A stretch of 64,000 nt of DNA from a virus (taxonomy: Duplodnaviria; Caudoviricetes). The notes below the pieces were generated by a model, which saw only the letters and a list, made by a program, of their open reading frames with translations, was not told the DNA's origin and ran no database searches. The translations under genes were made by a program, and so were the position numbers. How positions within the stretch are numbered: the stretch's first letter is position 1; each line of letters starts with the position of its first letter. The stretch spans positions 1,834-65,833 of the IMG/VR virus record IMGVR_UViG_3300025732_000037. One strand, 5' to 3'. This document shows positions 46,330 to 63,305 of this stretch, in pieces.

Positions 46330-46353
46330 TCATTGAAACTTTCTCTCTTAAAC

Positions 46354-46533: not shown

Positions 46534-46630
46534 TCTACTTTATGTGCCGCATCAGTATTTATGCAAGAAAGGGGGCATTTCTGCCCCCAATCTCTTTGCT
46601 TAGTTGCGACACATAAGCACTATTATTTAT
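46534..46630 (-). ncRNA. Putative antisense-loop RNA cassette A
   Basis: ATAAATA; stem TGCTTA/TAAGCA carrying CTTATGTGTCGCA; hairpin GGGGGCAGAAATGCCCCC+TTTCTT; CATAAATA; leader TGCGGCACATAAAG. Confidence 0.7.
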
Positions 46631-46795
46631 TCAATCAACCTCAACCCATTCTTCTCCATTATACACAACATCTGTACCAAAAACATCTGTGAACTCCAGC
46701 AAATAGTAATCTACAGATACACCTTTGATTGCAGCATCTTGAAGAGTTTGGTGATACTGTTCAGAGGTGAGAATGAAGAAATCAGTTTCAATCAT
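46631..46795 (-). CDS. 54-aa hypothetical protein
   Basis: Hand translation MIETDFFILTSEQY..SVDYYLLEF. Confidence 0.5.
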   Translation of the reverse strand: MIETDFFILTSEQYHQTLQDAAIKGVSVDYYLLEFTDVFGTDVVYNGEEWVEVD

Positions 46796-47068
46796 TGAGG
46801 TGAAATAATATCAGCAGCAGTGTGCAATGTGTTGGATGTTACGTTGCGAACTGCTGGTGAAAGTAGAAACGCAACGGTGAAAATCAGGAGAATTGTTTTC
46901 ACTTTACACGGTGATTTGAGTGTTAAACTTCTGCGGATCATTTGCAGAAATTAGGATCAATGTTACAGAATTGTTCTGCGCGTTGTTCTTGATACTCATT
47001 CACGGTTGCGATAGCATTAGCACCGAACTGAATACCAACGAAAAGTGTAGCGAAGAGAAGAACAATTC

Positions 47069-47275
47069 TCATTTCAGAATGTAACGATAATCAATGGATT
47101 TGATGCACCAACCTGTTGCACAGGTAATCTCTTCAACTAGATCATCCTCATCATCTGCTTCCCAGATTTGACCAATGGTTTCATCAATGATTTGTTCTTG
47201 TTTGGATGGTTGAAGTTCATACTCACCATCATCAGTGGTGAAATCAAACTTGATTTCAGTAACTTGGAACAGCAT
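47069..47275 (-). CDS. Hypothetical acidic protein
   Basis: 68 aa, ADDEDDLVEEITCATGWCIKSIDY. Confidence 0.65.
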   Translation of the reverse strand: MLFQVTEIKFDFTTDDGEYELQPSKQEQIIDETIGQIWEADDEDDLVEEITCATGWCIKSIDYRYILK

Positions 47276-47277
47276 AA

Positions 47278-47448
47278 TCAGTCAACGATAGAGTAGTTTG
47301 CAACCCAGGAAGGAATACCGCTCAGTGATAAAGAACTGTTGCGGGCATCGCAATAATCTTGGGCATCATCTTCAGAGTAAAAAGGTCCAATGTATTCTGG
47401 AGAATCAAGAGATTCAGACCAGAAACGAACGGTGAAAGTGTTAGTCAT
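47278..47448 (-). CDS. 56-aa hypothetical protein
   Basis: MTNTFTVRFW..YIGPFYSEDDAQ; ATG abuts repeat copy 6. Confidence 0.6.
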   Translation of the reverse strand: MTNTFTVRFWSESLDSPEYIGPFYSEDDAQDYCDARNSSLSLSGIPSWVANYSIVD

Positions 47449-47483
47449 ACTACTAGAACACTTTGGAGGTGAGTAACTTTAAT
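47449..47483 (-). repeat. 35-bp element, copy 6 (type A)
   Basis: actactagaacactttggaggtgagtaactttaat. Confidence 0.9.
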
Positions 47484-48069
47484 TAGTTGAACTTTGCGTT
47501 CACTCCAACTACCTTACAAGTTGGGTTCCTTACGAGTGCAGTTTCACGCGCATCTTTGGGTGAGTTAGCATACACTTCCTCAGTGAAGACTTTGCCGCCT
47601 TGATAGAGTTTAACTTCGAATTTCATACAGAAGGAATAACAGAGATTTCTTTAATGTTGAGACCGCAGAGTTGATTATAGACGCGATTGAGTATCAGTTT
47701 GTCCGCAGTCTTTGCATCGGATTTCTCATACCAAACGGTCACACATCCATCGTTAGTTTCAACCATCACGCGATAGTTTTTCATCAGTCAAGACACACAA
47801 AGTTGTAATCAATAATGTCTTCACCTTCATCAAGATTTAGACATTCAGCAATAGCATCAGGGATAAACTTGCGAGGATGACTATTCTCATCAATCACAAT
47901 CTCAAGTTTAACAACCCAAGTTTTGGTAGTCATAATCAATAAGTTTCTTTCTGGTTTTGTCGGCGTTGAGAGTCTTCATCCTCCTTAAATGGTTTATACT
48001 CAGGATGAGCATTTTCCCATTTAATCAGTTCATCAATCCAGGAAGAGTTGGAGTTGGTTTTTTTCATAA

Positions 48070-48309
48070 TCAGGCAGGAAGTGTGCAGAAAGTTCCACAC
48101 CAACCGCGAACCCATTGTAGAGTTTCAGCGTAGGAAGTGCGAGGGTTGGACATCTCCATCGTCTTACCATTGCGGGGATTGTGTGCAACGGCGACGTAGG
48201 AATAACCTTTGTACTCATCACCAGACTGCTCAATCCACATCTGGTTGACTTTGCCTTCCTTCCAATCGGTGTGGTAGGAGTAGATTTCGGAAACGATTGT
48301 TTTGCTCAT
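48070..48309 (-). CDS. Hypothetical protein
   Basis: 79-aa ORF whose ATG abuts repeat copy 7. Confidence 0.65.
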   Translation of the reverse strand: MSKTIVSEIYSYHTDWKEGKVNQMWIEQSGDEYKGYSYVAVAHNPRNGKTMEMSNPRTSYAETLQWVRGWCGTFCTLPA

Positions 48310-48344
48310 ACTACTAGGACACTTTGGAGGTGAGTAACTTTAAT
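48310..48344 (-). repeat. 35-bp element, copy 7 (type A)
   Basis: actactaggacactttggaggtgagtaactttaat. Confidence 0.9.
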
Positions 48345-48350
48345 TGCTTG

Positions 48351-48614
48351 TCACCAAGTTCCTCTTTGGACGTGGATTTTGCGAATCTCCGAATAAATGA
48401 AGCGACGCAGTTTATCATCTGTGCTATTGTCAAAAGCAAAGTACAGACGATTAAGATACTCATCTTGTGTAGCACATTTGATACTCTCTTTGGTGCTCAT
48501 TCCAATGTCGTTGAGTGTAGAACCTACAGAAACTTTGTTGCGGCCGAAGTTGCCCGAAACCCTACCTTGTGTGCGAAGTTTAGGTTTAATCTTAGAGAGA
48601 TTTGAGTAGGTCAT
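48351..48614 (-). CDS. Hypothetical protein
   Basis: 87-aa ORF. Confidence 0.6.
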   Translation of the reverse strand: MTYSNLSKIKPKLRTQGRVSGNFGRNKVSVGSTLNDIGMSTKESIKCATQDEYLNRLYFAFDNSTDDKLRRFIYSEIRKIHVQRGTW

Positions 48615-48760
48615 TCTTCCTCAGTCACAGCATCAAAAAAGAACTCATAAGTTGCAGAACCATTTACACTTTGTTTTGTACTCTTGAACCATTCAACAGG
48701 ACATTCTTTCAACCATTCATTAAAATCTATGTGTTGACTTGTGAGATTTGGTACAGTCAT
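48611..48760 (-). CDS. Hypothetical protein
   Basis: MTVPNL..FNEWLKECPVEW; ATGA overlap with the next gene. Confidence 0.55.
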   Translation of the reverse strand: MTVPNLTSQHIDFNEWLKECPVEWFKSTKQSVNGSATYEFFFDAVTEEE

Positions 48761-48761
48761 T

Positions 48762-48959
48762 TCATTTGGTAGAGAGATTGTTGATAATACGACGGGCAAA
48801 CTTCATAAAATCATAGGAAGTTACACCGTCATTATCATAACCATCCAGCATATCTGTTTGGTTGTAAGTATTCACAATCAGCAAACAAGCATCATAAAGT
48901 GCTGCCTGATGTTCCTCTTCAGAGTGAAAAGAAATTGCGTTGTAGTTAGGAAGGGTCAT
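48762..48959 (-). CDS. Hypothetical protein
   Basis: 65-aa ORF. Confidence 0.6.
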   Translation of the reverse strand: MTLPNYNAISFHSEEEHQAALYDACLLIVNTYNQTDMLDGYDNDGVTSYDFMKFARRIINNLSTK

Positions 48960-49075
48960 TTCAGTTTCAGTTTGAGTGATTGAAGAGATTGCTTGCGGGA
49001 TTTGATTTTACCCTTACACATACCCTTGGTTCGTTTACACTTACCAGAGTTGTGTTTCCAGTTTGGAGTGTTCAT
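48956..49075 (-). CDS. 39-aa basic protein
   Basis: MNTPNWKHNSGKCKRTKG...; ATG abuts repeat copy 8; ATGA overlap downstream. Confidence 0.55.
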   Translation of the reverse strand: MNTPNWKHNSGKCKRTKGMCKGKIKSRKQSLQSLKLKLK

Positions 49076-49110
49076 ACTATAGGGACACTTTCAGCGTCCC
49101 CCCTTTCAAT
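49076..49110 (-). repeat. 35-bp element, copy 8 (type B, hairpin-forming variant)
   Basis: Coding strand ATTGAAAGGGGGGACGCTGAAAGTGTCCCTATAGT. Confidence 0.8.
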
Positions 49111-49568
49111 CAACGAGCGTACAAATAACCACCAGACCAGTCAGCATTTGCCAGCAACCATTCACGATCTTTAATCAATCGCAGGTCATAACGAACACCT
49201 TTCGCAGGTGCTTTCCATGATGCAGACTTATACACTTCACCAGTCTTTTTGTCAATGAAGCAATGCACACTCCGCGATCCATTAGCGTTCATAATAACTT
49301 TGTGATACTTTCTACCAGTCTCAGGGTAGAACTCATAATCACAAATACCCTTGCGAAGTTTATCAATGCAAGCGATGTGATAGTGAGCATTATCACCTTT
49401 CTCAACAGAATGTTTGTGAGAACGGATAGAATAATCAATAAAGTTCTGTCGAAGTGCCTCACACAGAGCGTAAGTGTGACCCAGAACTGCAGTTGCAATA
49501 TCTTGCCGTGCTTCAGCAGCGGCAGAGTATTCAACGAAGGTAGTTGTAGTCATTTCAGTTGTGCTCAT
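49110..49568 (-). CDS. Phage hypothetical protein
   Basis: 152 aa, SVHCFIDKKTGEVYKSASWKAPAKGVRY; exactly bounded by repeats 8 and 9. Confidence 0.75.
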   Translation of the reverse strand: MSTTEMTTTTFVEYSAAAEARQDIATAVLGHTYALCEALRQNFIDYSIRSHKHSVEKGDNAHYHIACIDKLRKGICDYEFYPETGRKYHKVIMNANGSRSVHCFIDKKTGEVYKSASWKAPAKGVRYDLRLIKDREWLLANADWSGGYLYAR

Positions 49569-49603
49569 ACTACTAGGACACTTTGGAGGTGAGTAACTTT
49601 AAT
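49569..49603 (-). repeat. 35-bp element, copy 9 (type A)
   Basis: actactaggacactttggaggtgagtaactttaat. Confidence 0.9.
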
Positions 49604-49621
49604 TCACCAAGTTTTGGCAAG

Positions 49622-49715
49622 ATAAATACTTTGCCTGGTTTGTGTGGTAACTTCTCAGGTAGGGGAGATTTTAGGATTTCCCCTCATAAATAATAAAACC
49701 ACACAAACAGAGCAG
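49622..49715 (+). ncRNA. Putative antisense-loop RNA cassette B
   Basis: ATAAATA; stem GCCTG/CAGGT with loop GTTTGTGTGGT; hairpin AGGGGAGAT/ATTTCCCCT; CATAAATA; leader ACCACACAAAC. Confidence 0.7.
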
Positions 49716-50096
49716 ATGAAAGAACATCCTACCCATAAGGGTTACTTTATCACGAAAGATGGTAAGATTTTTAGTGCCTGGCAAAGAAAAGCAAATCCAG
49801 GATTTGGTAATAGTTTTTACTATGTAATAGATACAAATAAGATGAGAGAACTGAAATCTTGGGACAATAAAAAGGGGTACTTAATCCTTAACTTAAAAGG
49901 TTCTAAAAAGAACTGGAAAGTCCATAGATTAGTTGCAGAAACTTATTTGCCTAATCCATATAATCTACCACAAATCAATCATAAAAATAAAAATACAAAA
50001 GATAATAGTATTTCCAATCTAGAATGGTGTACGGCATCATATAACGCAATACATAGAGATTACTTTTCTATACTTTCTGAAAGCGTCCAGAGTTAA
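49716..50096 (+). CDS. HNH homing endonuclease (NUMOD4/HNH_3-type)
   Basis: Y.ITKDGKI, VHRLVAETYL, INHKNKNTKDNSISNLEW; likely start MKEHP. Confidence 0.88.
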   Translation: MKEHPTHKGYFITKDGKIFSAWQRKANPGFGNSFYYVIDTNKMRELKSWDNKKGYLILNLKGSKKNWKVHRLVAETYLPNPYNLPQINHKNKNTKDNSISNLEWCTASYNAIHRDYFSILSESVQS

Positions 50097-50970
50097 AGTT
50101 AGCGTGGGAAAAAACTTCTCTATTCACCAACTTATAGCAACCAAACTTGTTAGATAAGCAGTAACCTTCTGCATCAATACGATTGTATCCGATATAAGCA
50201 GCAGGACCATCATTACGACAAAGAAACAGGCAATCGTCTTTGATAGACTTCACAAGAGACCACAAACGAATGAGGTTAGGGTCACAATCAAAGTCATTCA
50301 CATTATCTACAGTAATCTGCTCACCTGCACGAATAAAATCATTCAGTTTCTTGGTAATCTTTGCTGCTTCTTTGTTAGAAACAAACTCACACATCGTAGA
50401 CATTTGACGCGCAAATGCACAAACTTCTTTTACATCAGCGAAGTATTCTTGCTGATGGACGATATAAGCATCAGGTTTCACAAACTTGCAGTAAGGTGTA
50501 TCGGTGATACTAAACTTCATCGGATACGCTACTGCATCACGCAAATCATTCTCTGCGATGTAGACAGTATGAGGAGCAAGAATAATCTCCTCAGTAACTA
50601 CATCAGGAAACTTGTAAGTGATAGTATTTGGTTTGTACTCATCACTACCACCAAACCCGATAAAGTCTGCTTGAATGATAGCATTTACACGCGGCAGATA
50701 GTCAAAGCAAGCGTGAAGAATGTTTGCTACATTACCTTCGTGATTTGCGTCAATATCCTGATGCGATTCGTTGATTTTGATTTTAACTTTATTGAAGACA
50801 CTTTTGGTCCCCACGAAGAAGTTACCAGTCGCAGGATTAATACCAAAAACTACTGCAGGAGCACCATCAATCTTGACAGACAGATTGCCAGGAGTTACAA
50901 ACCAATCCAGCACAGACAAATCGCCCGTGAGAATAGAATCTTCAGGATGTTGCAGGTGAGTGTTCTTCAT
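50068..50970 (-). CDS. Conserved phage protein with ligase/nucleotidyltransferase-like KxDG motif (DUF6267-like)
   Basis: KNTHLQHPED, SVKIDGAPA, EGY..KLVNREVFS. Confidence 0.7.
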   Translation of the reverse strand: MKNTHLQHPEDSILTGDLSVLDWFVTPGNLSVKIDGAPAVVFGINPATGNFFVGTKSVFNKVKIKINESHQDIDANHEGNVANILHACFDYLPRVNAIIQADFIGFGGSDEYKPNTITYKFPDVVTEEIILAPHTVYIAENDLRDAVAYPMKFSITDTPYCKFVKPDAYIVHQQEYFADVKEVCAFARQMSTMCEFVSNKEAAKITKKLNDFIRAGEQITVDNVNDFDCDPNLIRLWSLVKSIKDDCLFLCRNDGPAAYIGYNRIDAEGYCLSNKFGCYKLVNREVFSHANFNSGRFQKV

Positions 50971-51005
50971 ACTACTAGGACACTTTGAAGGTGAGTAACT
51001 TTAAC
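50971..51005 (-). repeat. 35-bp element, copy 10 (type A)
   Basis: actactaggacactttgaaggtgagtaactttaac; contains the upstream gene's TAA. Confidence 0.9.
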
Positions 51006-51729
51006 TCATTGCAGAAATGAGAGGATTGTTGATACGATCTTGTGCAATCTTAAAATACTCCTCATCCATTTCAATACCCACAAAGTTTCTATTAGTGTTC
51101 ACACACGCTACACCAGTTGTGCCTGATCCCATCGTATTGTCTAGTACAGTATCACCTTCGTTAGTGTATGTTTTAATTAGATACTCCATCAAATCAACAG
51201 GTTTTTGTGTAGGATGCAGACCCTTTTCTTGCTTGAATCGCAATACTGTCTTAGGGTATCTTGATCCATCAGGATTATCCCGATGCTTGCTCTTTGCACT
51301 ACCATAAACCTCACCAATCTTACTGGTTTCGGATGAGAAACCACTGTAAGGTGTAGAGTACCACATTTGAGGATTGTATGTAGGTTTCTTTCTATAAAAG
51401 ACCAGTATGTTTTCGTGTGACTTGAGAGGCATTACTTTTGAGTTCATAGGATTAGTCCCCTGAGGTTTTTCCCAGATCCATTCATAACGAAAGTTCTCAA
51501 GATTTGATGCTGCAAGTATAGTTGTGAATGGTTGTGCTGCAGTGAATACCATTGCACCATCTTCTTTACAGATTCTATTGTATTGCTCCCACAGTTTATC
51601 CAGAGGAATGATAGAATCCCATTTACACGCTGTTGTACCGTATGGCAAATCTACCAACACCAGATCCACAGAATCATCTGCAAGTGTTGGTAGAATGTCT
51701 AAACAATCGCCGTGAAATAGATTCACCAT
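51001..51729 (-). CDS. DNA amino-methyltransferase (N4C/N6A, beta class)
   Basis: GDCL, DLPY catalytic motif, HPTQKP, DNTMGSGTTG SAM-binding motif. Confidence 0.92.
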   Translation of the reverse strand: MVNLFHGDCLDILPTLADDSVDLVLVDLPYGTTACKWDSIIPLDKLWEQYNRICKEDGAMVFTAAQPFTTILAASNLENFRYEWIWEKPQGTNPMNSKVMPLKSHENILVFYRKKPTYNPQMWYSTPYSGFSSETSKIGEVYGSAKSKHRDNPDGSRYPKTVLRFKQEKGLHPTQKPVDLMEYLIKTYTNEGDTVLDNTMGSGTTGVACVNTNRNFVGIEMDEEYFKIAQDRINNPLISAMS

Positions 51730-52262
51730 TCGGTTATGTTCTTTACAAAGGAACATTCTACCAGACGATCAACTTTTGTGCAAATGTAATCATCATTGCC
51801 GATAGATTTGCCACCTTGTTGTGGTGCAAACAGACAATCTTCCGTCTCAAGATGATTGAGAAAATCGTCCTTACTAAACCAAAACAGACGACAATCTTTC
51901 TCATCCTGATTGATGCCAAAAAACACAAGACGTTCCCAATCTTTATCTTTAGAAACGTGATTGATGATAAACTGATCTTTCTTTGTGCCACCTTTTTTGT
52001 CACGGGTAGCAAGAGAGAACTTAATTTCGGTGCGAATGTTATCAATCACACGATCGTGCCCTGCTGTAGATGTTTTGGCACGTTTTACATCACACAGCAA
52101 CACATTCTCAAAGAACTTAGAGACGAAACGCTCACCAAACTCACCTTTCTGTTTGGGAGACATAAACACATAACCTTGGAAAGGTGTACCAATCCAAGGA
52201 TCTTGTGCATTTTGATTGATGTAATCTTGGAGAGATCCATCCTCAAAAATAGAAACAAACAC
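51723..52262 (-). CDS. Putative type II restriction endonuclease (PD-(D/E)xK)
   Basis: KQKGEFGE..GHD..TEIKFS; overlaps the MTase start; probable GTG start at 52262. Confidence 0.6.
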   Translation of the reverse strand: MFVSIFEDGSLQDYINQNAQDPWIGTPFQGYVFMSPKQKGEFGERFVSKFFENVLLCDVKRAKTSTAGHDRVIDNIRTEIKFSLATRDKKGGTKKDQFIINHVSKDKDWERLVFFGINQDEKDCRLFWFSKDDFLNHLETEDCLFAPQQGGKSIGNDDYICTKVDRLVECSFVKNITEW

Positions 52263-52281
52263 GTTGAATACCTTTCTATAC

Positions 52282-52316
52282 ACTATAGGGACACTTTCGG
52301 CGTCCCCCCTTCCATA
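52282..52316 (-). repeat. 35-bp element, copy 11 (type B)
   Basis: Coding strand TATGGAAGGGGGGACGCCGAAAGTGTCCCTATAGT. Confidence 0.8.
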
Positions 52317-52320
52317 AAAC

Positions 52321-52345
52321 AAAAAAAGGGAACTTGTAAAGTCCC
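52321..52345 (-). terminator. Rho-independent terminator
   Basis: GGGACTTTACAAGTTCCC followed by T7. Confidence 0.6.
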
Positions 52346-52348
52346 CAG

Positions 52349-52370
52349 GTGCCACTTCAGTTAGTGGCAT
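52349..52370. promoter_or_regulatory. Palindromic operator-like box
   Basis: GTGCCACT-N6-AGTGGCAT; related boxes at 53950, 59124 and 60329. Confidence 0.6.
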
Positions 52371-52372
52371 AC

Positions 52373-52618
52373 TTAGCGCGGATTTGCTGATACTCGAGTA
52401 TCAAGATAATCCAGCACGTTCTTCACATAGGGAGCAACAGTTTGAGTAACTTTGCTCAGATCATCACGAAGTTTGTTAACTTCATATTGATGGATTGCCC
52501 AGCGAACCTTAATGTCTTCGATGTATTGCTGGCGAGTGATGAGAACCTCAGGAACTTTCACTTCAGGAGCAGCAACAACAGCAGGAACATTTGCGGTTTG
52601 CTTGCGAGCGCGAGGCAT
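52373..52618 (-). CDS. Hypothetical protein
   Basis: 81-aa ORF. Confidence 0.65.
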   Translation of the reverse strand: MPRARKQTANVPAVVAAPEVKVPEVLITRQQYIEDIKVRWAIHQYEVNKLRDDLSKVTQTVAPYVKNVLDYLDTRVSANPR

Positions 52619-52636
52619 AGATTAGATGCGTCTTAC

Positions 52637-52671
52637 ACTACTAGAACACTTTGGAGGTGAGTAACTTTAAT
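52637..52671 (-). repeat. 35-bp element, copy 12 (type A)
   Basis: actactagaacactttggaggtgagtaactttaat. Confidence 0.9.
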
Positions 52672-52846
52672 CCACAGGAAGTTGTGCTACACTTTTACCC
52701 TTTTTGTGATCTGTGATGTACTTTCGTGCTGATGCTTCGGTCTTACAAAGTTTCTCAAGTTGCTGACCTTTGTGAATGATGAGATACTGTTTTCCATAAG
52801 GAATAACAGCATATTCATCCCTAAACATTGTGAATCCTTCGATCAT
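52667..52846 (-). CDS. 59-aa hypothetical protein
   Basis: MIEGFTMFRDEYAVIPYGKQYLIIHKGQQL...; stop lies inside repeat 12. Confidence 0.55.
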   Translation of the reverse strand: MIEGFTMFRDEYAVIPYGKQYLIIHKGQQLEKLCKTEASARKYITDHKKGKSVAQLPVD

Positions 52847-53844
52847 TTGATTTCAACAAGAGATTGAGGATCTTCAACACCAATCAGTTGAGGAAGGGCA
52901 CCAGCAATAGAGTAAGAGGAAGAACAAGTTTCCATACGCTTAGAGACATACTTACGAACAAGTTTATCAAGTTCCTCAAGATATTGAATGGCATACTGAC
53001 GTTGTGCGGCAACTTCTTCTGCAGTTTCACACCCTTTGGTGTAGGTAACTACATCAGTAACGTCAATGTCACGCTCAACAAAGTTCTTCATAATCTGAAG
53101 AAAACCACGCTCAATGTAAGTCCTATCTTTTGCACAAATTACAACAGGATTAGTAGAAGAACTGGTATCAACAATCTCACTAACTTTTGATTGTGCGTTC
53201 TTGGGATGAACAAAAGGAAGAATGTTGACTGCGATTGTTGTCTGCTGATAGATCTTATTCGTGATGTCTTCTACTTGCTTGGGAGTGAATGAATGGTTGA
53301 TACTACCCACCCAATTTTCAATTTCTTTCTTAGACAGAGAGTTACCATTTCGCTTGCAATACTGCACACCGCGAAGGACAAAATCGTTGAGAGTGTGTCG
53401 CTTTGCTACAGTGTGATTGTTTGCACCCAGAGAGACAACATCATAGGCATCTTCCAAACGATTTGCCCAACTTTCTTTCAGTCGGTAAACAAGAAAAGGA
53501 TAATCTTTGATACCAAGTTCATAGGCAGCATTACTACGATTATATCCATCCCACATTTCCTTCTCACCGTTAGGAAGGATCATCACAACTGGGGGGAGTT
53601 CGGTTACACGATAACCTTTCTGAAACTCTGCAATCAGTCCGTTAATGTTGTTGGTATCGACACCACCAGCGCGAGCAGCATTTGCTTGCTGTTGAATGTT
53701 AAGGTTATTCCATTGGAGGATCTCAATGCTTTCAAACTCAGCACATTCAAACTGCGGAATGTCAAGAGATTTGAACGTAGGATTACTCAACAGAGCATCC
53801 CAAGAAGTCACATTAGACTGGAAAAAAGGAACAATTTGAGTCAT
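52843..53844 (-). CDS. Protein with ParB/Srx-like N-terminal domain
   Basis: PPVVM..EMWDGYNRSNA resembles the ParB-N DGxxR motif. Confidence 0.6.
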   Translation of the reverse strand: MTQIVPFFQSNVTSWDALLSNPTFKSLDIPQFECAEFESIEILQWNNLNIQQQANAARAGGVDTNNINGLIAEFQKGYRVTELPPVVMILPNGEKEMWDGYNRSNAAYELGIKDYPFLVYRLKESWANRLEDAYDVVSLGANNHTVAKRHTLNDFVLRGVQYCKRNGNSLSKKEIENWVGSINHSFTPKQVEDITNKIYQQTTIAVNILPFVHPKNAQSKVSEIVDTSSSTNPVVICAKDRTYIERGFLQIMKNFVERDIDVTDVVTYTKGCETAEEVAAQRQYAIQYLEELDKLVRKYVSKRMETCSSSYSIAGALPQLIGVEDPQSLVEIK

Positions 53845-53912
53845 TATTAAGAAAATAGCAAGGTTTGCTTTTTGTCAGTCCGTTTGAACAAGAGTTCCGA
53901 ACTGATGAGTGT

Positions 53913-53959
53913 AGTTTAACAACTTTGGGTGGGGATGTCAATCCCCTGTGTGACACTTT
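53913..53959 (-). promoter_or_regulatory. Early promoter with upstream AAAGTGTCAC box
   Basis: AAAGTGTCAC-N8-TTGACA-17-TAAACT. Confidence 0.7.
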
Positions 53960-54068
53960 TGAAAAAATCGTTGATTTGATTGCGGAGGATGACCTATGAC
54001 ACCCTTGCAGTAGAATTGCAGAAAAATCAGGTTTTGACCCCTGATGGATACAGGGGTCTCAGTGAGAC

Positions 54069-55310: not shown

Positions 55311-55315
55311 TATCT

Positions 55316-55350
55316 AGTATTAGAACAGTTTAGAGGTGAGTAACTTTAAT
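55316..55350 (-). repeat. 35-bp element, copy 13 (type A, diverged)
   Basis: agtattagaacagtttagaggtgagtaactttaat. Confidence 0.85.
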
Positions 55351-55660
55351 CCTCTTTCATTCCCATAAAAACAAGAATACCAATGACAATGATGGCAGGA
55401 ATAGCAATATACCAGTAAGTTGTCAATAAGTAAAGAACAAATCCAATCCCAAGTAACCAAACAAGTCCAGAAGAATCTCCAGAACTGAATGAAGAACCTC
55501 CACCATTGGAGCGAACTTCTCTTAGATTTGTGATCTGCTGAACATTACCGTGTTTAGCGTAAATCTGCTGTTTTGCTCCACTAATAGTTGCTGCTTCTAC
55601 TTCAGTTGTAATCCTGCCAACTTGTGAGTTGACAAATACCTCTGCTCTCCAAGTTGCCAT
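55346..55660 (-). CDS. Small membrane protein
   Basis: C-terminal hydrophobic segments LVWLLGIGFVLYLL and IAIPAIIVIGILVF. Confidence 0.7.
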   Translation of the reverse strand: MATWRAEVFVNSQVGRITTEVEAATISGAKQQIYAKHGNVQQITNLREVRSNGGGSSFSSGDSSGLVWLLGIGFVLYLLTTYWYIAIPAIIVIGILVFMGMKED

Positions 55661-55662
55661 AA

Positions 55663-55860
55663 TCAACCTCCGTAAACTTCTTCAGCGATAGGAGTATCAC
55701 CGAACATTTCATTATACAACCAATCAGTGGGTTTGTCCAGATTATCTTCACACTCTTTCAGAAAGGCAATCTCACGAGTCCAAAACTCAACAGATTTCTT
55801 TGCTTTCAGATACTCATTGCGAGCATCATAAAGTTTGCGTTGGATTTCAACTCGGTCCAT
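55663..55860 (-). CDS. Hypothetical protein
   Basis: 65-aa ORF. Confidence 0.6.
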   Translation of the reverse strand: MDRVEIQRKLYDARNEYLKAKKSVEFWTREIAFLKECEDNLDKPTDWLYNEMFGDTPIAEEVYGG

Positions 55861-55877
55861 AATGTGGGTGTGCTTAT

Positions 55878-55912
55878 ACTACTAAAACACTTTAGAGGTG
55901 AGTAACTTTAAT
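55878..55912 (-). repeat. 35-bp element, copy 14 (type A)
   Basis: actactaaaacactttagaggtgagtaactttaat. Confidence 0.9.
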
Positions 55913-55917
55913 AGGTC

Positions 55918-56595
55918 TCAACTTTCAGATGCTTGTGCTGCTGCTTTTGCTTTTGCTCTCATCTGAACAGCAACTTTACTATTCCACTTTCCACCATCCG
56001 CTTCATATTCTTTACGCATTTGTGCAAGGATTTCCGTGGCAGATTTCTTAGTCTTTTGTGCTGTTGCTGTTTTCTCTTTATTTCTAGCAGCATCTCTCTC
56101 CTGACGTGTCATAGGAGTACCATCAGGATGCGTCCACTTTCTGCGGGATTTTGCTTCTGGTTTTTCTGATGTTGGTTTTGCTTGAGAGATTGCTTGTGAT
56201 GCGGTCTTGGGTTGTTCCTTACCACTTTCTCTTGCTTTACGCTCAAGATATGCTTTACGTTGCAGTTCTTTTCTAGACATTGCAGCACTACCTTGAGTTC
56301 CAGCAGTTCCTGCTTTTAACTCAGTTGAACCTTGACCTCTTCCTGGTGCTGGTGCTGAAGATCCTCTCTGCTGACCAACATCTTTACGTTCTTTGTAAGG
56401 TGCGATTGGTTCTGTTTTACCACCACCAACTGCTCTTGTTCTTCTAACTTCAGGAGCAGTCTTTTTGCGCTCTTTTCCTATTCTACCACCATCACCTGTG
56501 CGGGTGATAGACGCACCACCACCCCATCCAAGTTGTTTGGCAGCATCAGCATCAGATGCTTCGCAAATAGACATAAACTCCCGAAACGTCTTCAT
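55918..56595 (-). CDS. Basic low-complexity protein, probable internal head protein
   Basis: MKTFREFMSICEA CTS-like start; CTAAATA late promoter upstream; K/A/R-rich. Confidence 0.7.
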   Translation of the reverse strand: MKTFREFMSICEASDADAAKQLGWGGGASITRTGDGGRIGKERKKTAPEVRRTRAVGGGKTEPIAPYKERKDVGQQRGSSAPAPGRGQGSTELKAGTAGTQGSAAMSRKELQRKAYLERKARESGKEQPKTASQAISQAKPTSEKPEAKSRRKWTHPDGTPMTRQERDAARNKEKTATAQKTKKSATEILAQMRKEYEADGGKWNSKVAVQMRAKAKAAAQASES

Positions 56596-56621
56596 TGTTA
56601 TCTAAACACTCTTTTTAGTAT

Positions 56622-56834
56622 TTAGTTATCTGCAGCATCACGCAGTTTATCCTGAGCAGATTTGCTAATCTTACAAACCATATCGTTGTCGTAAAAGTAT
56701 TTCACACGTTCACGACGGGCAGCAAGCAAAAGATCATATTCCTCCTGTTGCTGTTTCGTAAAGGTAAAATCTTGCTTCCTCCAAATCTCTTTGAGTTCGT
56801 TCAGATGAGGCAGCACGTTCACAGTTTCAGTCAT
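56622..56834 (-). CDS. Hypothetical protein
   Basis: 70-aa ORF. Confidence 0.6.
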   Translation of the reverse strand: MTETVNVLPHLNELKEIWRKQDFTFTKQQQEEYDLLLAARRERVKYFYDNDMVCKISKSAQDKLRDAADN

Positions 56835-56838
56835 TTAT

Positions 56839-57027
56839 TCAGGATACAGGAGTTTCGGTTTCAGTGGTAGATTCGGTGGACACTTGTTTAGGTGTCACAC
56901 GAACATTGTAAGGACTATTGAAGAACCTGCGGAAAGCAGTAACAACAATAAGAAGCGTTGAAGCAACACCAACCAAACCAAGGAAGGTAACAGCATCACC
57001 ACTGAAAGTGTATTGATCGGGAGTCAT
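56839..57027 (-). CDS. Small single-pass membrane protein
   Basis: AVTFLGLVGVASTLLIVVTAF transmembrane segment. Confidence 0.6.
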   Translation of the reverse strand: MTPDQYTFSGDAVTFLGLVGVASTLLIVVTAFRRFFNSPYNVRVTPKQVSTESTTETETPVS

Positions 57028-57186
57028 AATTAGAAATCGTGCGTAGAGTTCAGGTATTCATTAAAGGATTGATCGTCAAACTCATCATCAATAAAGATGT
57101 TATCTTCATCGACAAAGTTGAAGTAACTTTCCTCTTCGATTTGATAGTTGTCGTTGAAAGGATCCATCTGTTTAATGGGTGCTTAC

Positions 57187-57221
57187 AATATTAGAACACT
57201 TTGGAGGTGAGTTATTTTATT
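57187..57221 (-). repeat. 35-bp element, copy 15 (degenerate type A)
   Basis: aatattagaacactttggaggtgagttattttatt. Confidence 0.75.
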
Positions 57222-57913: not shown

Positions 57914-57938
57914 TTCTTATTGTTTTTAGGTATTTATG

Positions 57939-58828: not shown

Positions 58829-59068
58829 TCAGGTTGTGAAACTTTCAACAATACGGGATTGTTCTTCATCTACAAGAGCAAACTTCTGCGCGTCTACTAC
58901 AGATTGCATAATCAAACTATCATAATTATCAAGGTAATCCTCCCTCCACTCCAAAAGAATGTCGTGAACCTCATTATCATCTTTACCAACAACTGCAAGA
59001 AGTCCACCATATTCACTGGTTGGAAACTTCGGCCAGAAATTCACCAAATAGAGAAATTTGTTAGTCAT
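58829..59068 (-). CDS. Hypothetical protein
   Basis: 79 aa, FPTSEYGG motif; own promoter. Confidence 0.7.
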   Translation of the reverse strand: MTNKFLYLVNFWPKFPTSEYGGLLAVVGKDDNEVHDILLEWREDYLDNYDSLIMQSVVDAQKFALVDEEQSRIVESFTT

Positions 59069-59092
59069 TCACTTTATCTGTTTAACAAATAC

Positions 59093-59143
59093 ATCATAAG
59101 AACTTTTCTTCCAAAAGTCAAGTGTGCAGTTCTCAAACTGTCC
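59093..59143 (-). promoter_or_regulatory. Early promoter with upstream inverted-repeat box
   Basis: GGACAGTT-N4-AACTGCAC then TTGACT-17-TATGAT. Confidence 0.7.
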
Positions 59144-59177
59144 AGTGAGCACAATAAATCTTGCCTTGATTAGACAT
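59133..59177 (-). pseudogene. 14-codon relic of a GIY-YIG gene
   Basis: MSNQGKIYCAHWTV* (GxIY start) directly after cassette C, running into a promoter box. Confidence 0.55.
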
Positions 59178-59282
59178 AACTGCTCTTTAGTTGACTGACT
59201 TAAGTATTTATACAAGAAAAGGAGCATTTCTGCCCCTTCTCCACCTGTAGAGATGTCAGTCAACTCAGGCATTAGTATTTAG
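59178..59282 (-). ncRNA. Putative antisense-loop RNA cassette C
   Basis: CTAAATA; stem GCCTG/CAGGT with loop AGTTGACTGAC; hairpin AAGGGGCAGAAATGCTCCTT+TTCTT; TATAAATA; leader GTCAGTCAACT. Confidence 0.7.
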
Positions 59283-59845
59283 TTATTATTTTTTAATCTA
59301 GAAGAAACTCCTCAAGAATATAATCACAGGTCACTTCATATTTGGAAGCAAGTTCTTCAATATAAGAACAGAAGTCCTCCGCTTCCCTATCAATCTGAAG
59401 GTCTTTGCGGTCTTTGTTATAGTCAATCAAGTTGCTTGCTCCTTTTGTTGAGTATAGACATCATCAAACCAGTGATTGAGAATATTATCACAGATTTGAT
59501 ATTCTTTACCATTGAGTGAAGTTCGGTGCATTTGCCAATACCTTACGGCATTAAAAATGACTTTCTTCTCCTCTATACTTAATTCGTTCTTCATCTTTAG
59601 GTCTCATCACCTTGAAATAGTATAGCATAATACTGGACACGGTAGCAACCAAAGCAAGATAGATTGCGATTGCAAGTGATAAACTCATCGTATCTGACTG
59701 CTAACTGGTTTCTTAATGTTCTCCATTGCTTGACGACGATAGTATTCTTTATACATTGCATCATCACGCTGGACTAGAAATACATTCCATCCAATCACAG
59801 CAGAGAAAGCAATCAGTCCAGCAGCAAGATACTTTGGTTTCATAA

Positions 59846-60265
59846 TCAAACGTGAAGAGCAGCAGAGGGGATTTCAACGATTTCGGGGAGTTTGGAATCA
59901 TCAAACTGATTCATATTGTAGCACACCCACTCACCGTTGCGGAAGAGATAGGCATACTCTTCCCCATCACAAAGGTATTCACCAATGTTTTTATCAAGGC
60001 GAGGAGGACAATCTTCGCCCCTTTCTCTATAATGAAGCGGACCATAATAACCACGTTGAGTTTTACCTTCTGAAGTGTAAAATCCATCATCAGTCCAGAG
60101 GCAACTTACATCCCCACCATCCACAAGTGCCTCAACTTTCTCACGGGTGTTGTAGTGAGTGCGAAGAATACGACCTGCCCACTCAGGATAGTTATCGTAA
60201 TGGCTATAAATGCTGAGGATACTTCCATCAGAAAGTTCCAAACCCACTCGGCCTCTTGTAGACAT
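59846..60265 (-). CDS. Conserved phage hypothetical protein
   Basis: MSTRGRVG..SIYSHYDNYPEWAG..EEYAYLF. Confidence 0.75.
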   Translation of the reverse strand: MSTRGRVGLELSDGSILSIYSHYDNYPEWAGRILRTHYNTREKVEALVDGGDVSCLWTDDGFYTSEGKTQRGYYGPLHYRERGEDCPPRLDKNIGEYLCDGEEYAYLFRNGEWVCYNMNQFDDSKLPEIVEIPSAALHV

Positions 60266-60292
60266 TTAAGGTGTTTTGTTGAATACCTTGTT

Positions 60293-60350
60293 ATTATACG
60301 GCATCCAGGGCGTCCTACAAGGTCTCCTGTGCCACTTCTTCAACTGCCAC
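60293..60350 (-). promoter_or_regulatory. Early promoter with GTGGCAGTT..AAGTGGCAC box, overlapping the endonuclease 3' end
   Basis: Box, then TTGTAG-16-TATAAT. Confidence 0.6.
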
Positions 60351-60998
60351 AAGGTCTTTATATCTTTTCCATTCTTTGAGTTGAAGTTTTCTCAATCCAA
60401 GTTTATTATATCCATTTTTTATTCTCCAAGGTTGAAGTGCTTTTACAATTTCAACTCTACCATTTTCATAAGTTATTTTCCAAGTTTTTGCTCTTGGATT
60501 ATTAGCACCACTTACATCTAATCCATTTTTATATCTTTCTTTCATCATTTGACGATTTATTTCTTTTTGATGTTCTGGTATAGTTCCACCTTTATTCCAA
60601 CCAATATGCCCTTTATTTGCCTTCCCAATTTTTCTTTTATGATCTTCACTCTTTTTTCTTCCTTTACCAGCAGCAGATAACTTTTCACAATGTTTTTTTG
60701 AAAGTTTTTTCCCAGTATTCCAAGGAATAACACCAGATGCTCCATCGCCACCATTTGTAAGATTTCTTAAAACCCCAGTTCCTAAATCTTTTCTACCAAA
60801 AACAGTAATCATATAGATTTCGTGTTTAAATGCTTCTTCTTCGGTTAGGTTTTGTTTTAGTATGAGTATTCTTTCTTTTGGAGGAACACTAAGATTTTTC
60901 TTTCTTCGGTGTTTAGCATATGCCCTATTACCTTTCCCCTTACCAATATAATAAGGTGTTCCATCTTCACGCAAATATGCGTAAGTGTAGTATTCCAT
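60315..60998 (-). CDS. GIY-YIG homing endonuclease with NUMOD3 repeats
   Basis: [37 protein letters not shown]. Confidence 0.9.
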
Positions 60999-61091
60999 CT
61001 GCTTTAATCGTGGTTATATTTATTTATACAAGAAAGAGGTCATAAAGACCCCTTTCCGCTTAAACAACCACGATTAAGCATCATTATTTAT
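60999..61091 (-). ncRNA. Putative antisense-loop RNA cassette D
   Basis: ATAAATA; stem GCTTAA/TTAAGC carrying GCTTAATCGTGGTT; hairpin GAAAGGGGTC/GACCTCTTTC; TATAAATA; leader AACCACGATTAAAGC. Confidence 0.7.
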
Positions 61092-61092
61092 C

Positions 61093-61929
61093 TCAATACA
61101 ATAAACTCTCCAGAGCATTTACATTAGATTCAACCTTGACTTCTGGATACTTAATAATAATCAGTTCTGTCTTTTTACCTCTACGACTTACATCACCCGC
61201 CATCTGATAATCAAACTCCAAATATCTAAACTCCGTCCAATCTTTATAAAGTTCTTTGAGATAATCAGTATTGTCATAAGACATCACAAATCCACCTTTA
61301 TGTTGTTTCAATACTTCGGCAAGTTTATCGTGATTAAATCCTTCGTGAGTGCTTCCATCAATACCATAATAATATGATGTCGTTTTATAATATGGTGGAT
61401 CCAAATAGATAAAGTCATTCTTATGTTTGGGAATTGTCTCAAAACAATCTCCAAAAGAAAATGAGAGATTTGGATTATAAAATCCAATCAATCTATGAAT
61501 ACCAGCAAGATTTAGGTTTTTTCTTGATGCTTCAGAAGTATGTCCTAGGTCTCCACTAAAAGCACCTTTAATACAAATATAAAATGCCCACGCTCTAGTA
61601 AACTTATCATCACTCTCTAGAAGAGGAAGAAATGATTTGTAGTGTTCTCTATCTTTCAAAGGATAATGCTTTGCTACCTCTTCACCAATCCTTTTACCAC
61701 CTTCAGTTGTTAAGGTTTCCCAGAAATCAGCAAGTGGTTGAAACAAATCATATGCTTGAACTTTCACACCCTGAGATGCTAAGAAGATTTCAATACATCC
61801 ACCACCCATAAATGGAGACATCATATGAGTTAAGTTTGGGCAAACTTCTCTTATGATCTTTACAATCTCATCTTTCATTTTGTTTTTACCGCCAGCATAG
61901 CGATATAAACTTGTGGAAGTATATCTCAT
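61093..61929 (-). CDS. DNA adenine methyltransferase (Dam/D12 class)
   Basis: YAGGK, SPFMGGG, YLDPPYY and FNHDKLA motifs. Confidence 0.9.
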   Translation of the reverse strand: MRYTSTSLYRYAGGKNKMKDEIVKIIREVCPNLTHMMSPFMGGGCIEIFLASQGVKVQAYDLFQPLADFWETLTTEGGKRIGEEVAKHYPLKDREHYKSFLPLLESDDKFTRAWAFYICIKGAFSGDLGHTSEASRKNLNLAGIHRLIGFYNPNLSFSFGDCFETIPKHKNDFIYLDPPYYKTTSYYYGIDGSTHEGFNHDKLAEVLKQHKGGFVMSYDNTDYLKELYKDWTEFRYLEFDYQMAGDVSRRGKKTELIIIKYPEVKVESNVNALESLLY

Positions 61930-61960
61930 AAACTATAGTTTTCTAATCATATTATACATT

Positions 61961-62018
61961 AAAAAAGGTGCTTTATCCCAACCTGAAAAGAACCACCAAC
62001 TCAGGCATTTTTATTTAG
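61961..62018 (-). ncRNA. Orphan antisense-loop RNA cassette E
   Basis: CTAAATA; stem GCCTGA/TCAGGT with loop GTTGGTGGTTCTTT; second hairpin broken; no cognate target downstream. Confidence 0.55.
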
Positions 62019-62185
62019 GTATTGCTTCCAACATAAGATAGAGACCTAACAAACAATTCAGTAAACCTCTCTTGCTTTTCTGGATGAACTGATGCTGGAC
62101 TATCGTTAATTGCCTTTCGAAGAGCATCAAGTTCTCGCCACTCCTCGTCAGTAAGTTCTTGTCGCTCTCTTGCTGAATAAGTCAT
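62015..62185 (-). CDS. 56-aa hypothetical protein
   Basis: MTYSARERQELTDEEW.EL.ALRKAINDSPASVHP. Confidence 0.55.
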   Translation of the reverse strand: MTYSARERQELTDEEWRELDALRKAINDSPASVHPEKQERFTELFVRSLSYVGSNT

Positions 62186-62275
62186 CATTTTGCTCCCATA
62201 TATCTTTAAATCCTAACATTATTTAAGAGAGAAGTGCTGTTCCTTAAGAATGTCTTCAGGGTGTTGTAACAAAAC

Positions 62276-62503
62276 TTAATCTACATCAAAAGACCAACCA
62301 AAGTTACCTTTGCTTCCTGGTTTACGGCTGTCCAGCATATCCATAATCTCCTCAATCTTCTTGCATTGTTCCATATCAAGCAGAAGTTGTGAGAGTTGTT
62401 TAACAACCAAAGGTTTTTCATTCACAGATGCAGACTTGATTGCTGCTCGCAGATGACTTTCTGCCTCAAGTAGGTGCTCTAATGTTTGATGCGAAAGTGC
62501 CAT
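62276..62503 (-). CDS. Hypothetical protein
   Basis: 75-aa helical ORF. Confidence 0.65.
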   Translation of the reverse strand: MALSHQTLEHLLEAESHLRAAIKSASVNEKPLVVKQLSQLLLDMEQCKKIEEIMDMLDSRKPGSKGNFGWSFDVD

Positions 62504-62530
62504 TAAGATTTATTTTTCCTTTTATTTTAC

Positions 62531-63202
62531 TTATTCTATCCTAACTCTCTGCAAGTTGTCAATACCTTTACTCTTTTGATACCTAGACAACCCTCCAGGA
62601 TTTGATATATGTCCAGTAACTAAACATTTCCATTTTTGTGAGCAGGTTTTTGTTCCACCTTTAGAACCACATTTAGACAATTCTTCACTCATCATTTTAA
62701 ATATACCTATATTATTTTCTTTATTTTTTAGTGCATTTTTTCTACCAAGTTTACTTCTTTTTTCTGCAGTCATTCCACAAAATCCAGTTTTGTTCTTTTT
62801 ATTTTTTAATCCATTTTTTCTACCAATTTCAATTCTTTTTTCCTTTGATAATCCACAAAAACCTCTTTTTAATTTTGCATTATCATTTCCTATTTTTTTA
62901 GAATGTTCTTTACAACCATAATAAAATTTTACAGAAGTTTGTTTTGATTTATTTGCAAAATGTGGATTTATATCAACTTCAAAATAATTATGAAGTATGA
63001 TTTCATCTATTACCGATTCCTTTCTTGTAGCATAATCACTTTTCAAAATTATCTTCTTCGTTGGTTTGAAACTTTTATCACTAAAAGAACCAAAATACTT
63101 TACATCTTCTTCCGGAAGACATTTACAGGTTCTACTACCGAAATATCCTCTACCATATTCCTCATAGGAATAATAGACATAATAATACTCTTTAAGTTCC
63201 AT
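62531..63202 (-). CDS. Seg-like GIY-YIG homing endonuclease
   Basis: YYVYYSYEEYGRGYFGSR, D.KYFGS, NPHFAN; basic repeats. Confidence 0.85.
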   Translation of the reverse strand: MELKEYYYVYYSYEEYGRGYFGSRTCKCLPEEDVKYFGSFSDKSFKPTKKIILKSDYATRKESVIDEIILHNYFEVDINPHFANKSKQTSVKFYYGCKEHSKKIGNDNAKLKRGFCGLSKEKRIEIGRKNGLKNKKNKTGFCGMTAEKRSKLGRKNALKNKENNIGIFKMMSEELSKCGSKGGTKTCSQKWKCLVTGHISNPGGLSRYQKSKGIDNLQRVRIE

Positions 63203-63305
63203 AGTTCTACTCTAACTTGTTAGCAATACTATTTATATAAGAAAAGGTGCCCGAAGACACCTTTTCCACCTGATAAGTGCTAACAAGTCAGGTATCTTTA
63301 TTTAT
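63203..63305 (-). ncRNA. Putative antisense-loop RNA cassette F
   Basis: ATAAATA; stem ACCTGA/TCAGGT carrying CTGACTTGTTAGCA; hairpin GAAAAGGTGTC-TTCG-GGCACCTTTTC; TATAAATA; leader TGCTAACAAGTTAG. Confidence 0.72.

Follow-up and report, generated by a model that had tools for sequence, protein, structure and literature searches.

Translational masks with a late promoter inside the hairpin have been described for the T4 genes e, soc, 49, I-TevI, I-TevII, I-TevIII and segB, and for mobE of phage Aeh1 (PMC2988022, PMC3014915). In these systems, long transcripts fold a stem that covers the translation start, and the inner late promoter produces transcripts without the 5′ strand of the stem (PMC2988022, PMC3014915). 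Hairpins have also been reported by Dassa et al. (2009), who found them in 15 of 16 endonuclease 5′ untranslated regions, ten including TATAAATA. The same study described two mutually complementary conserved motifs upstream of free-standing endonuclease genes that belong to “fractured gene” loci in marine metagenomes, and noted that the hairpin persists where the endonuclease has been lost (PMC2677866). Here, we describe a related regulatory cassette that occurs in five complete copies (c1 to c5), before endonuclease genes, their relics and one gene of plausible endonuclease kinship, in a 64,000-nt stretch of phage DNA. This stretch, referred to as the window, spans positions 1,834 to 65,833 of IMG/VR record IMGVR_UViG_3300025732_000037. 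It is nearly the whole of a 65.8-kb contig, estimated to be 31% complete, from a T4-like cyanophage.

The cassette is ~100 bases long, and its elements have the same order in all five copies. An upstream late-type box, (A/C)TAAATA (P1), is followed after 5 nt by a 5′ hairpin (H1), whose 5′ strand and loop form a variable arm. Next come a GC-rich hairpin with an A tract and a T tract on its sides (T), a second late box (P2), 4–5 nt, the leader arm, the motif A(A/G)AG(C/T)AG and the ATG. P2 is TATAAATA in three copies and CATAAATA in two. The predicted transcription start of P2 (+1, the 6th nt after the box) is the first base or bases of the leader arm in all five copies; the predicted +1 of P1 is the first base of H1. 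An earlier note on this DNA, made from the sequence alone, had placed five copies of this architecture in the window, and all five read as it described. Its statement that the inner hairpin usually has a U tract is true of four copies; c2 has none.

Each upstream arm pairs with its own leader only, far beyond chance. Cognate arm/leader duplexes have energies of −19.9 to −23.1 kcal/mol, compared with −6.3 to −15.5 kcal/mol for the 20 non-cognate combinations, and the cognate value is matched by 0–2 of 1,000 leader shuffles. The complementary pairs that the earlier note had listed for the five copies are correct; for c1, the pairing includes G·U pairs. The minimum free energy fold of the predicted RNA from the P1 +1 to the ATG has the arm:leader stem in five of five copies. 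This stem is 14–17 bp long, encloses T and P2, and ends 2–11 nt before the ATG. Fold z scores are −4.4 to −8.4 relative to 200 dinucleotide shuffles per copy, with 0–1 shuffles folding as well. A covariance model run on the window finds exactly the five cassettes (59–87 bits, by construction), a truncated orphan and nothing else. Rfam 15 gives no match at the gathering threshold anywhere in the 64-kb window, in agreement with the earlier note, which did not recognize the cassette as a described family; at E (expect value) up to 10, a search of positions 58900–63500 returned chance-level rows alone, with bit scores far below gathering.

On the minus strand, c1 occupies positions 46531..46631 (z −6.2; 80.2 bits with the covariance model). 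Its P1, ATAAATA, lies at 46624-46630 with a predicted +1 at 46618, followed by H1 (46598-46618), T (46565-46594) and P2 (CATAAATA, 46556-46563, predicted +1 46550); the 5′ arm is 46603-46618, the leader arm 46537-46553 and the ATG 46531-46533. The plus-strand copy is c2, at 49621..49718 (z −4.4; 59.3 bits). Here P1 (ATAAATA, 49622-49628, predicted +1 49634) precedes H1 (49634-49659), a GC hairpin without a T tract (49661-49684) and P2 (CATAAATA, 49685-49692, predicted +1 49698), with arms at 49635-49648 (5′) and 49698-49715 (leader) and the ATG at 49716-49718. Together with the endonuclease gene that follows it, c2 (49621-50096, plus strand) is oriented against all neighboring genes, as T4 segD is. 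The other three copies are again on the minus strand. For c3 (59175..59283; z −4.6; 79.1 bits), P1 is CTAAATA at 59276-59282 (predicted +1 59270), H1 is 59243-59270, T is 59215-59242, P2 is TATAAATA at 59205-59212 (predicted +1 59199), the arms are 59255-59270 (5′) and 59182-59199 (leader), and the ATG is 59175-59177. For c4 (60996..61092; z −8.4; 74.3 bits), the corresponding positions are 61085-61091 for P1 (ATAAATA, predicted +1 61079), 61058-61079 for H1, 61031-61057 for T, 61021-61028 for P2 (TATAAATA, predicted +1 61015), 61064-61079 and 61001-61017 for the 5′ and leader arms, and 60996-60998 for the ATG. In c5 (63200..63306; z −6.2; 86.5 bits), P1 is ATAAATA at 63299-63305 (predicted +1 63293), and H1 (63268-63293), T (63240-63267) and P2 (TATAAATA, 63230-63237, predicted +1 63224) lead to an ATG at 63200-63202, the 5′ arm being 63276-63293 and the leader arm 63209-63229. 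The stop codon of an upstream 172-amino-acid open reading frame (ORF; 63288-63806) lies inside the H1 of c5, so this cassette supplies the last codons of a neighboring gene.

How does the cassette compare with the described masks? Its core appears on this analysis to be the mechanism already known from I-TevI, I-TevII, I-TevIII, segB and Aeh1 mobE. As in the published accounts of the T4 and Aeh1 masks, an RNA helix lies over the translation start on upstream-derived transcripts, a TATAAATA-type late promoter is found inside it, and late transcripts without the 5′ strand are translated, or in the cassette are predicted to be. As with I-TevI and mobE, the controlled gene is a homing endonuclease embedded among other genes. 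Unlike the masks of T4 and Aeh1 as those accounts present them, the cassette has a long-range stem, with ~55 nt between its arms, that encloses a terminator-like hairpin; a second late-type promoter lies upstream of the whole structure, with the first base of the 5′ arm as its target; this arm is already folded into a selected hairpin, which competes with the leader; and the design is modular, with one layout serving several nuclease families. The hairpins of Dassa et al. are most probably the same or a sister element, to judge from the main text of that paper. Like the cassette at c1 and c3, they outlast the nuclease, and they come from metagenomic DNA that is likely cyanophage-related. That text mentions neither an upstream promoter, a competing 5′ hairpin, a small RNA nor a “terminator”, although more may be visible in Figure 4 and Supplementary Figure S4 of the paper; it also gives no co-variation statistics or family-wide survey, both of which are presented here for the cassette. 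The earlier note took the cassette for an undescribed kind of element, which is too strong: the core is the T4 mask (PMC2988022, PMC3014915), and hairpins with TATAAATA were reported in 2009 (PMC2677866). What is undescribed in the text consulted for the known masks is the elaboration, namely P1, the selected H1 and the terminator-like hairpin. In the literature outside subscription papers and supplementary files, we found no description of an upstream promoter combined with a competing hairpin and a terminator, nor of a small RNA at homing-endonuclease genes.

The cassette is not confined to the window. Among 80 IMG/VR loci with relatives of the protein encoded downstream of c4, we found 58 distinct full cassettes; ~10 of the 80 loci have no cassette, a different leader or a contig end. 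A scan blind to the protein used a 17-mer made up of the T tract and P2, and returned at least 120 stretches, from which 80 loci were examined. These contain 85 matches, 72 of them with a leader:upstream duplex of −19 kcal/mol or better, and (A/C)TAAATA is present upstream in all 72. Such strong matches are followed by ORFs of four GIY-YIG-like N-terminal types (61 matches), by other ORFs (four: two HNH-like, one NUMOD3-only and one unknown) or by relics (two); five are cut or have no ORF that we could find. Among the 13 weaker matches are one decayed copy and otherwise unrelated sequence.

There is strong co-variation between arm and leader across this family. Because the arms differ in length, alignment of 30 copies with MAFFT/RNAalifold recovered only six seed pairs, and the structure for a covariance model built from 30 copies (R1) was given by hand. 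R1 identified 113 copies across 100 loci, none of which had contributed to the model. In these copies, 90.2% of cells are paired, compared with 73.2% for shuffles and 38–58% for slid partners, in an alignment that is fitted to the model and so favors structure. For the six seed pairs, pairing reaches 99.5%, and each of them co-varies. The earlier note had proposed a covariance model as a check on co-variation of loop and leader; 21 of 25 pairs are changed on both sides, and none of 500 shuffles reaches any of the measures. A larger set of 177 copies was chosen by duplex energy, such that its perfect outer-stem score (177/177) is circular; the unbiased sets are the 17-mer scan, the copies anchored blind to P1 and the R1 copies. 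In most of the 177 copies, the arm:leader stem ends 1–5 nt from the ATG. The same seed can be found before different kinds of nuclease, many seeds serve a single kind, and the flanking genes vary from locus to locus. As far as can be read from these comparisons, the cassette is a modular, portable unit shared by unrelated nuclease genes, as the earlier note had proposed; in the window alone, the same design precedes GIY-YIG-type/NUMOD3 and HNH genes.

Cultured phages that carry the cassette include S-SRM01, S-B68 and B3/B23. In S-B68, it lies between the genes for DNA polymerase and UvsX, and P2 is CTAAATA. In S-SRM01 (locus L085; MW015081.1 51291-51992), the coding sequence annotated as “nuclease associated modular domain 3 protein” has its start within the cassette, at locus position 1126. 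The ATG downstream of the conserved leader lies at about locus position 1184, and the annotation has probably mis-called the start. A search for the two-promoter pattern found no cassette in Syn9, S-PM2, P-HM2 or P-SSM2, four phages with published transcriptomes. The sole match in Syn9 (119410-119476) is a promoter-terminator-promoter stretch between small genes, with neither a leader arm nor an endonuclease gene, and was rejected. In two loci, L129 (about 2590-2620) and L186 (about 1980-2010), P1 directly follows sequence that resembles the 3′ end of a transfer RNA (tRNA) gene, with a T-arm-like motif ending in CCA. The cassette may thus have inserted beside tRNA genes, a location also known for T4 segB. 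A simpler class of leader precedes related GIY-YIG-type genes in locus L055 (1400-1510) and also in L066, L074, L020, L090 and L107. There, an upstream segment pairs with the bases immediately preceding the ATG in a 12-bp stem around a small hairpin and TATAAATA, with no P1 or terminator-like hairpin; the fold has a z score of −3.7 and resembles the plain I-TevI design.

How might the cassette work? We propose that it acts as a translational mask, carried along as a portable unit with a free-standing homing-endonuclease gene. RNA containing the upstream arm would arise by read-through from the gene upstream, or from P1 past the inner hairpin. As folds and co-variation both suggest, such RNA would fold the 14–17-bp stem with the leader, and since this stem ends 1–11 nt before the AUG and encloses the inner hairpin and P2, the translation start would be hidden. 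P2 lies inside the loop, and transcripts from P2 would start at the leader arm, without the upstream arm, making them the only translatable form. By analogy with I-TevI and mobE, nuclease synthesis would thus be restricted to late infection through P2. Much of the transcription that arrives from upstream probably ends at the inner GC hairpin and its T tract. A second layer may be added by RNA from P1, which would begin at the first base of H1 and present a seed in the H1 loop; H1 competes with the leader for the same 5–9 bases, and the short RNA could mask the P2 messenger RNA (mRNA) in trans by toehold pairing with its 5′ end, which would cap the nuclease dose. The earlier note had offered a cis switch and a separately promoted small RNA as alternatives. 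The two are not mutually exclusive, and the former is well supported in silico by the folds and the co-variation. We consider the cis mask very probable, and the explanation as a whole, with its second layer, likely though less so.

Some observations weigh against parts of this explanation. The conserved A(A/G)AG(C/T)AG that precedes the ATG does not qualify as a canonically spaced Shine-Dalgarno sequence, so what exactly the stem occludes is something that we infer. The missing T tract in c2 is shared with a few relatives. Three mid-stem pairs are only 59% paired in the R1 alignment, which we attribute, short of proof, to differences in length between arm types. The trans layer faces additional difficulties: as far as their sequences tell, both promoters belong to the late class, meaning that the RNA and its target would be made together; almost all modules with P1 and H1 (210/214) adjoin their own target, and a search for dispersed pairs of RNA and target found none; and simpler masks without P1 or the terminator occur before related genes in other contigs.

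Several observations indicate that P1 belongs to the cassette and that H1 is selected. When copies are anchored blind to P1, information is near zero upstream and rises exactly at (A/C)TAAATA; TAAATA is found 6–16 nt before the first paired base in 156 of 174 copies, and at −10 in 121. In the set found through the protein, P2 is TATAAATA in 55 of 58 copies, whereas P1 is N(A/C)TAAATA, with TATAAATA in only 6/58 and NCTAAATA in 26/58. The 8-mers used as P1 are the types found before the gp20, gp18, gp15, gp8 and gp25 genes of the source phage and before two ORFs with ACTAAATA, and by this comparison P1 looks like an ordinary late promoter. The putative RNA from P1 to the end of T would be 51–58 nt long in the window, and it folds as two hairpins in 177 of 177 copies. 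There are 64 different strings for the 5′ strand of H1, each matched by its own H1 3′ strand and its own leader. H1 was judged by per-sequence folds and shuffles, its 3′ strand being in unaligned insert columns. Its mean energy is −6.25 kcal/mol, compared with −2.75 kcal/mol for shuffled tails, and for 75 of 115 distinct copies H1 ranks within the top 5% when set against its own shuffles. Pairing with the leader involves 4–12 loop nt and 5–9 stem nt of H1. These numbers indicate that H1 is selected and that the 5′ arm has two selected partners, with its loop bases free to act as a toehold for the leader. In most copies, T is a GC stem followed by a T-rich tract. This tract was counted before P2, since the A tract pairs with the T tract; loci fetched with the 17-mer bias the T-tract figures, and the protein-found set does not. 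A simple terminator scan of the five window hairpins flagged c1 alone. From these features, P1, H1 and the terminator-like hairpin probably look like a gene for an RNA of ~51–58 nt. That such an RNA acts in trans is a possibility that we hold with some reserve.

A stronger form of the small-RNA idea makes a dedicated trans-acting RNA the main function of the cassette. In this model, P1, H1 and the terminator would be a true small-RNA gene whose product represses or titrates the P2 mRNA, much as IS10 RNA-OUT acts on the 5′ end of RNA-IN, and the intramolecular stem on read-through RNA would be secondary. The conservation of P1 as the first element of the unit, its ordinary late-promoter 8-mers, the aim of its +1 at H1, the three-way co-variation of the selected H1 with the leader, and the hairpin with a T tract in most copies all fit this model. 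So does the location of c2, which is antisense to its neighbors: with no co-oriented gene upstream, P1 is the only obvious source of RNA with the c2 5′ arm. Cofolding of the putative short RNA with the first 11–15 nt of the P2 mRNA gives gains of −9.9 to −13.7 kcal/mol for cognate pairs only, non-cognate gains being no stronger than −7.2 kcal/mol. After de-duplication, strong cross-pairing within a contig is seen in just 1 of 86 ordered pairs, as opposed to 8.0% of 29,670 pairs between contigs, but the between-contig set is inflated by orthologous copies, which confounds the comparison and tells against the trans layer; the mean cross-pairing energy did not differ between same-contig and other-contig pairs (p 0.48; run with one c4 duplicate). 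The same adjacency of module and target that troubles a trans layer counts against this model, as do co-expression from two late promoters with no obvious switch and the occurrence of the stem before related genes without P1 or T. Moreover, the stem alone is the experimentally established mechanism in the published work on T4 and Aeh1. On balance, we regard a dedicated small RNA as the main function as a tentative proposal, less probable than the mask in cis.

P1 could instead have nothing to do with a regulatory RNA. One version makes it an AU-rich site directly ahead of a stem at which RNA is processed, by RNase E for instance; another makes it a spare late promoter that, reading through a leaky hairpin, only ensures that the downstream genes are transcribed late. 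H1 would then be a co-transcriptional folding intermediate only. RNase E processing is reported near T4 seg genes (PMC2988022), c2 keeps P1 even though its inner hairpin has no T tract, and partial pairing of the T tract with the upstream A tract may weaken termination. However, what is conserved is TAAATA at a fixed distance rather than general AU-richness, P2 already provides downstream late transcription, and a mere intermediate would not need the stability above shuffled controls that H1 shows in most distinct copies. We consider this explanation unlikely. It is far less likely still that the inverted repeat acts as DNA, be it as a cruciform, a site for a dimeric protein or a signal for homing recombination. 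The two arms do form an inverted repeat around P2, and I-TevI binds an operator that overlaps its own late promoter (PMC2988022). Against this, G·U pairs on the sense strand outnumber A·C single mismatches by 143:1 in the outer stem, 218:5 in H1 and 280:0 in T, an asymmetry that is unexpected for DNA or for the opposite strand; the outer-stem set was chosen with an RNA energy rule, and the H1 and T sets were not. Arms that vary within one kind of nuclease, and a seed shared by different kinds, argue against a protein-specific site. The base-pair counts indicate that the structure acts as RNA on the sense strand rather than as DNA. The mask in cis, with a possible second layer, is the explanation that we carry forward.

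The putative cassette RNA also invites comparison with RNA regulators of other selfish elements. RNA-OUT of IS10/Tn10 is a small stem-loop RNA whose loop pairs with the extreme 5′ end of the mRNA for the element's own enzyme, RNA-IN; pairing spreads over the ribosome-binding region, and the selfish element thereby limits its own enzyme. A loop-presented seed directed at the 5′ end of a selfish enzyme's mRNA is common to RNA-OUT and the putative cassette RNA. Transcription of RNA-OUT crosses the same DNA on the opposite strand, whereas the cassette arm lies upstream on the same strand, its complementarity comes from an inverted repeat, and it can act intramolecularly. In type I toxin-antitoxin pairs, such as hok/sok and symE/symR, a small RNA blocks translation of a potentially harmful product. 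The earlier note called the cassette RNA antitoxin-like, a label that fits loosely: arm and leader are on one strand, ~55 nt apart, meaning that the putative RNA and its target do not have an antisense arrangement, and the host of the element is a lytic phage. Nor does the cassette give any sign of differential RNA stability or of a post-segregational logic. A non-coding RNA tied to a homing-endonuclease gene is already known from a T4-like cyanophage, S-PM2, where CfrI, a cis-antisense RNA of ~225 nt, spans the endonuclease gene and psbA (Millard et al. 2010, as described in PMC2984593 and PMC12197685). As described in those papers, CfrI has no twin-promoter cassette. A 2010 review of T4 stated that no trans-acting small regulatory RNA had been functionally characterized in that phage (PMC3014915).

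Which genes does the cassette control? Downstream of c2 is an HNH endonuclease gene (49716..50096, plus strand, 126 amino acids; HNH_3, phrog_959), with an HNH_3 match at E 2.6e-9 (37 bits; cut-off 24.8) and matches to PHROG HNH families as strong as E 2e-30 for phrog_959. Downstream of c4 is a gene for a free-standing endonuclease of GIY-YIG/NUMOD3 type (60315..60998, minus strand, 227 amino acids). Its protein falls at the NUMOD3 cut-off (20.3 bits, cut-off 20.4), matches phrog_15526 (E 1.6e-30) and phrog_314, “homing endonuclease” (E 7e-15), and has 385 relatives in IMG/VR; the Pfam GIY-YIG profile does not match it. A 59-amino-acid relic of a gene of the c4 kind follows c1 (46354..46533, minus strand); it keeps the N-terminal motif region alone and matches the first third of the phrog_15526 profile (E 3e-11). 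The ATG of c3 opens a 14-codon relic ORF, the N-terminus of which matches a GIY-YIG and NUMOD family that is intact in other contigs, where a relative scores 28.8 bits with Pfam GIY-YIG (cut-off 22.6). The ORF downstream of c5 (62531..63202, minus strand, 223 amino acids) belongs to a family with no Pfam or NCBIfam name; its protein gave no match in Pfam, NCBIfam or Protein Data Bank (PDB) sequence searches, whether as a single sequence or as a profile. A structural model from a 17-sequence alignment (predicted local distance difference test score 79) gave no Foldseek match at E 0.001 or better. The modeled N-terminal domain can be superimposed on the I-TevI catalytic domain (1ln0_A) with a Z of 5.8 and a root-mean-square deviation of 2.8 Å over 76 residues, below the safe level, and the model matches further GIY-YIG chains, 1ycz, 2wsh and 7wme, at Z 3.5–4.3; its C-terminal part looks like a small zinc finger. 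Thus, of the partner families given in the earlier note, HNH for c2 stands and NUMOD3 for c4 stands at the cut-off; a Seg-like GIY-YIG protein for c5 is plausible on the model, from a weak fold match only.

The source phage encodes the gp20 portal, the gp18 sheath, gp15, gp8 and gp25 in the window, and the window has weak DNA similarity to Synechococcus phages S-SKS1, S-SRM01 and SynMITS9220M01. Its virion genes provide a reference for late promoters: upstream of gp20, gp18, gp15, gp8 and gp25 is (A/G/C)ATAAATA, in the form of AATAAATA, GATAAATA or CATAAATA, 18–36 nt before the ATG, and ACTAAATA is present before two window ORFs of unknown function; these genes and ORFs lie in window 3221-39069, 40045-40812 and 55918-56595 (all minus strand). 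Perfect TATAAATA is rare outside cassettes; three of its six minus-strand sites in the window are cassette P2 boxes. In Aeh1, the late-promoter consensus is the (a/g)C variant, and the box is at −13 to −6 (PMC2988020). The window also contains 13 copies (up to 3 mismatches) of a 25-base repeat core at 41906-57218 (minus strand), with a chance expectation of none. These copies stand directly before the start codons of small minus-strand genes and are probably an early promoter/leader box, which would place c1 and c2 inside an array of presumably early genes.

The truncated orphan cassette is at 61950-62019 on the minus strand (20 bits with the covariance model, E 0.62; also evident from its sequence). 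What is left of it is P1 (CTAAATA), H1 in intact form and the 5′ half of T, with no P2, leader arm or endonuclease gene; its H1 seed differs from those of all five full copies. The remnant is joined to the region upstream of a Dam-type methylase gene (61093-61929), and no complementary leader was found adjacent to it or behind any late-type box in the window. By its structure it looks like a deletion scar. An orphan in locus L146 (minus strand, around position 4999 of the reversed locus) has P1, H1 and a complete terminator hairpin, with no P2 or complementary leader after it; its seed is close to that of the orphan in the window.

What are the implications of the cassette? No selfish genes are commoner in large phages than homing endonucleases, and the ways in which these are restrained are known from a few cases in T4 and Aeh1. 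The cassette indicates that, in T4-like cyanophages of fresh and marine waters, many unrelated nuclease genes share a single standard control unit, portable and ~100 bases long. In this family, nature provides many compensatory variants of one RNA switch, and its members can flag mis-called gene starts in deposited genomes, such as that of S-SRM01. It is also conceivable, on the sequence evidence for the upstream half, that P1, H1 and the terminator are a genuine late small-RNA gene, whose product would be a programmable toehold RNA of ~55 nt that caps endonuclease dose. If this is true, no class of small RNAs that regulate in trans would have been described before these in T4-like phages. Their seeds would be exchangeable between nuclease families yet kept from cross-reacting within a genome, and the system would be a natural example of toehold-mediated, sequence-programmable repression.

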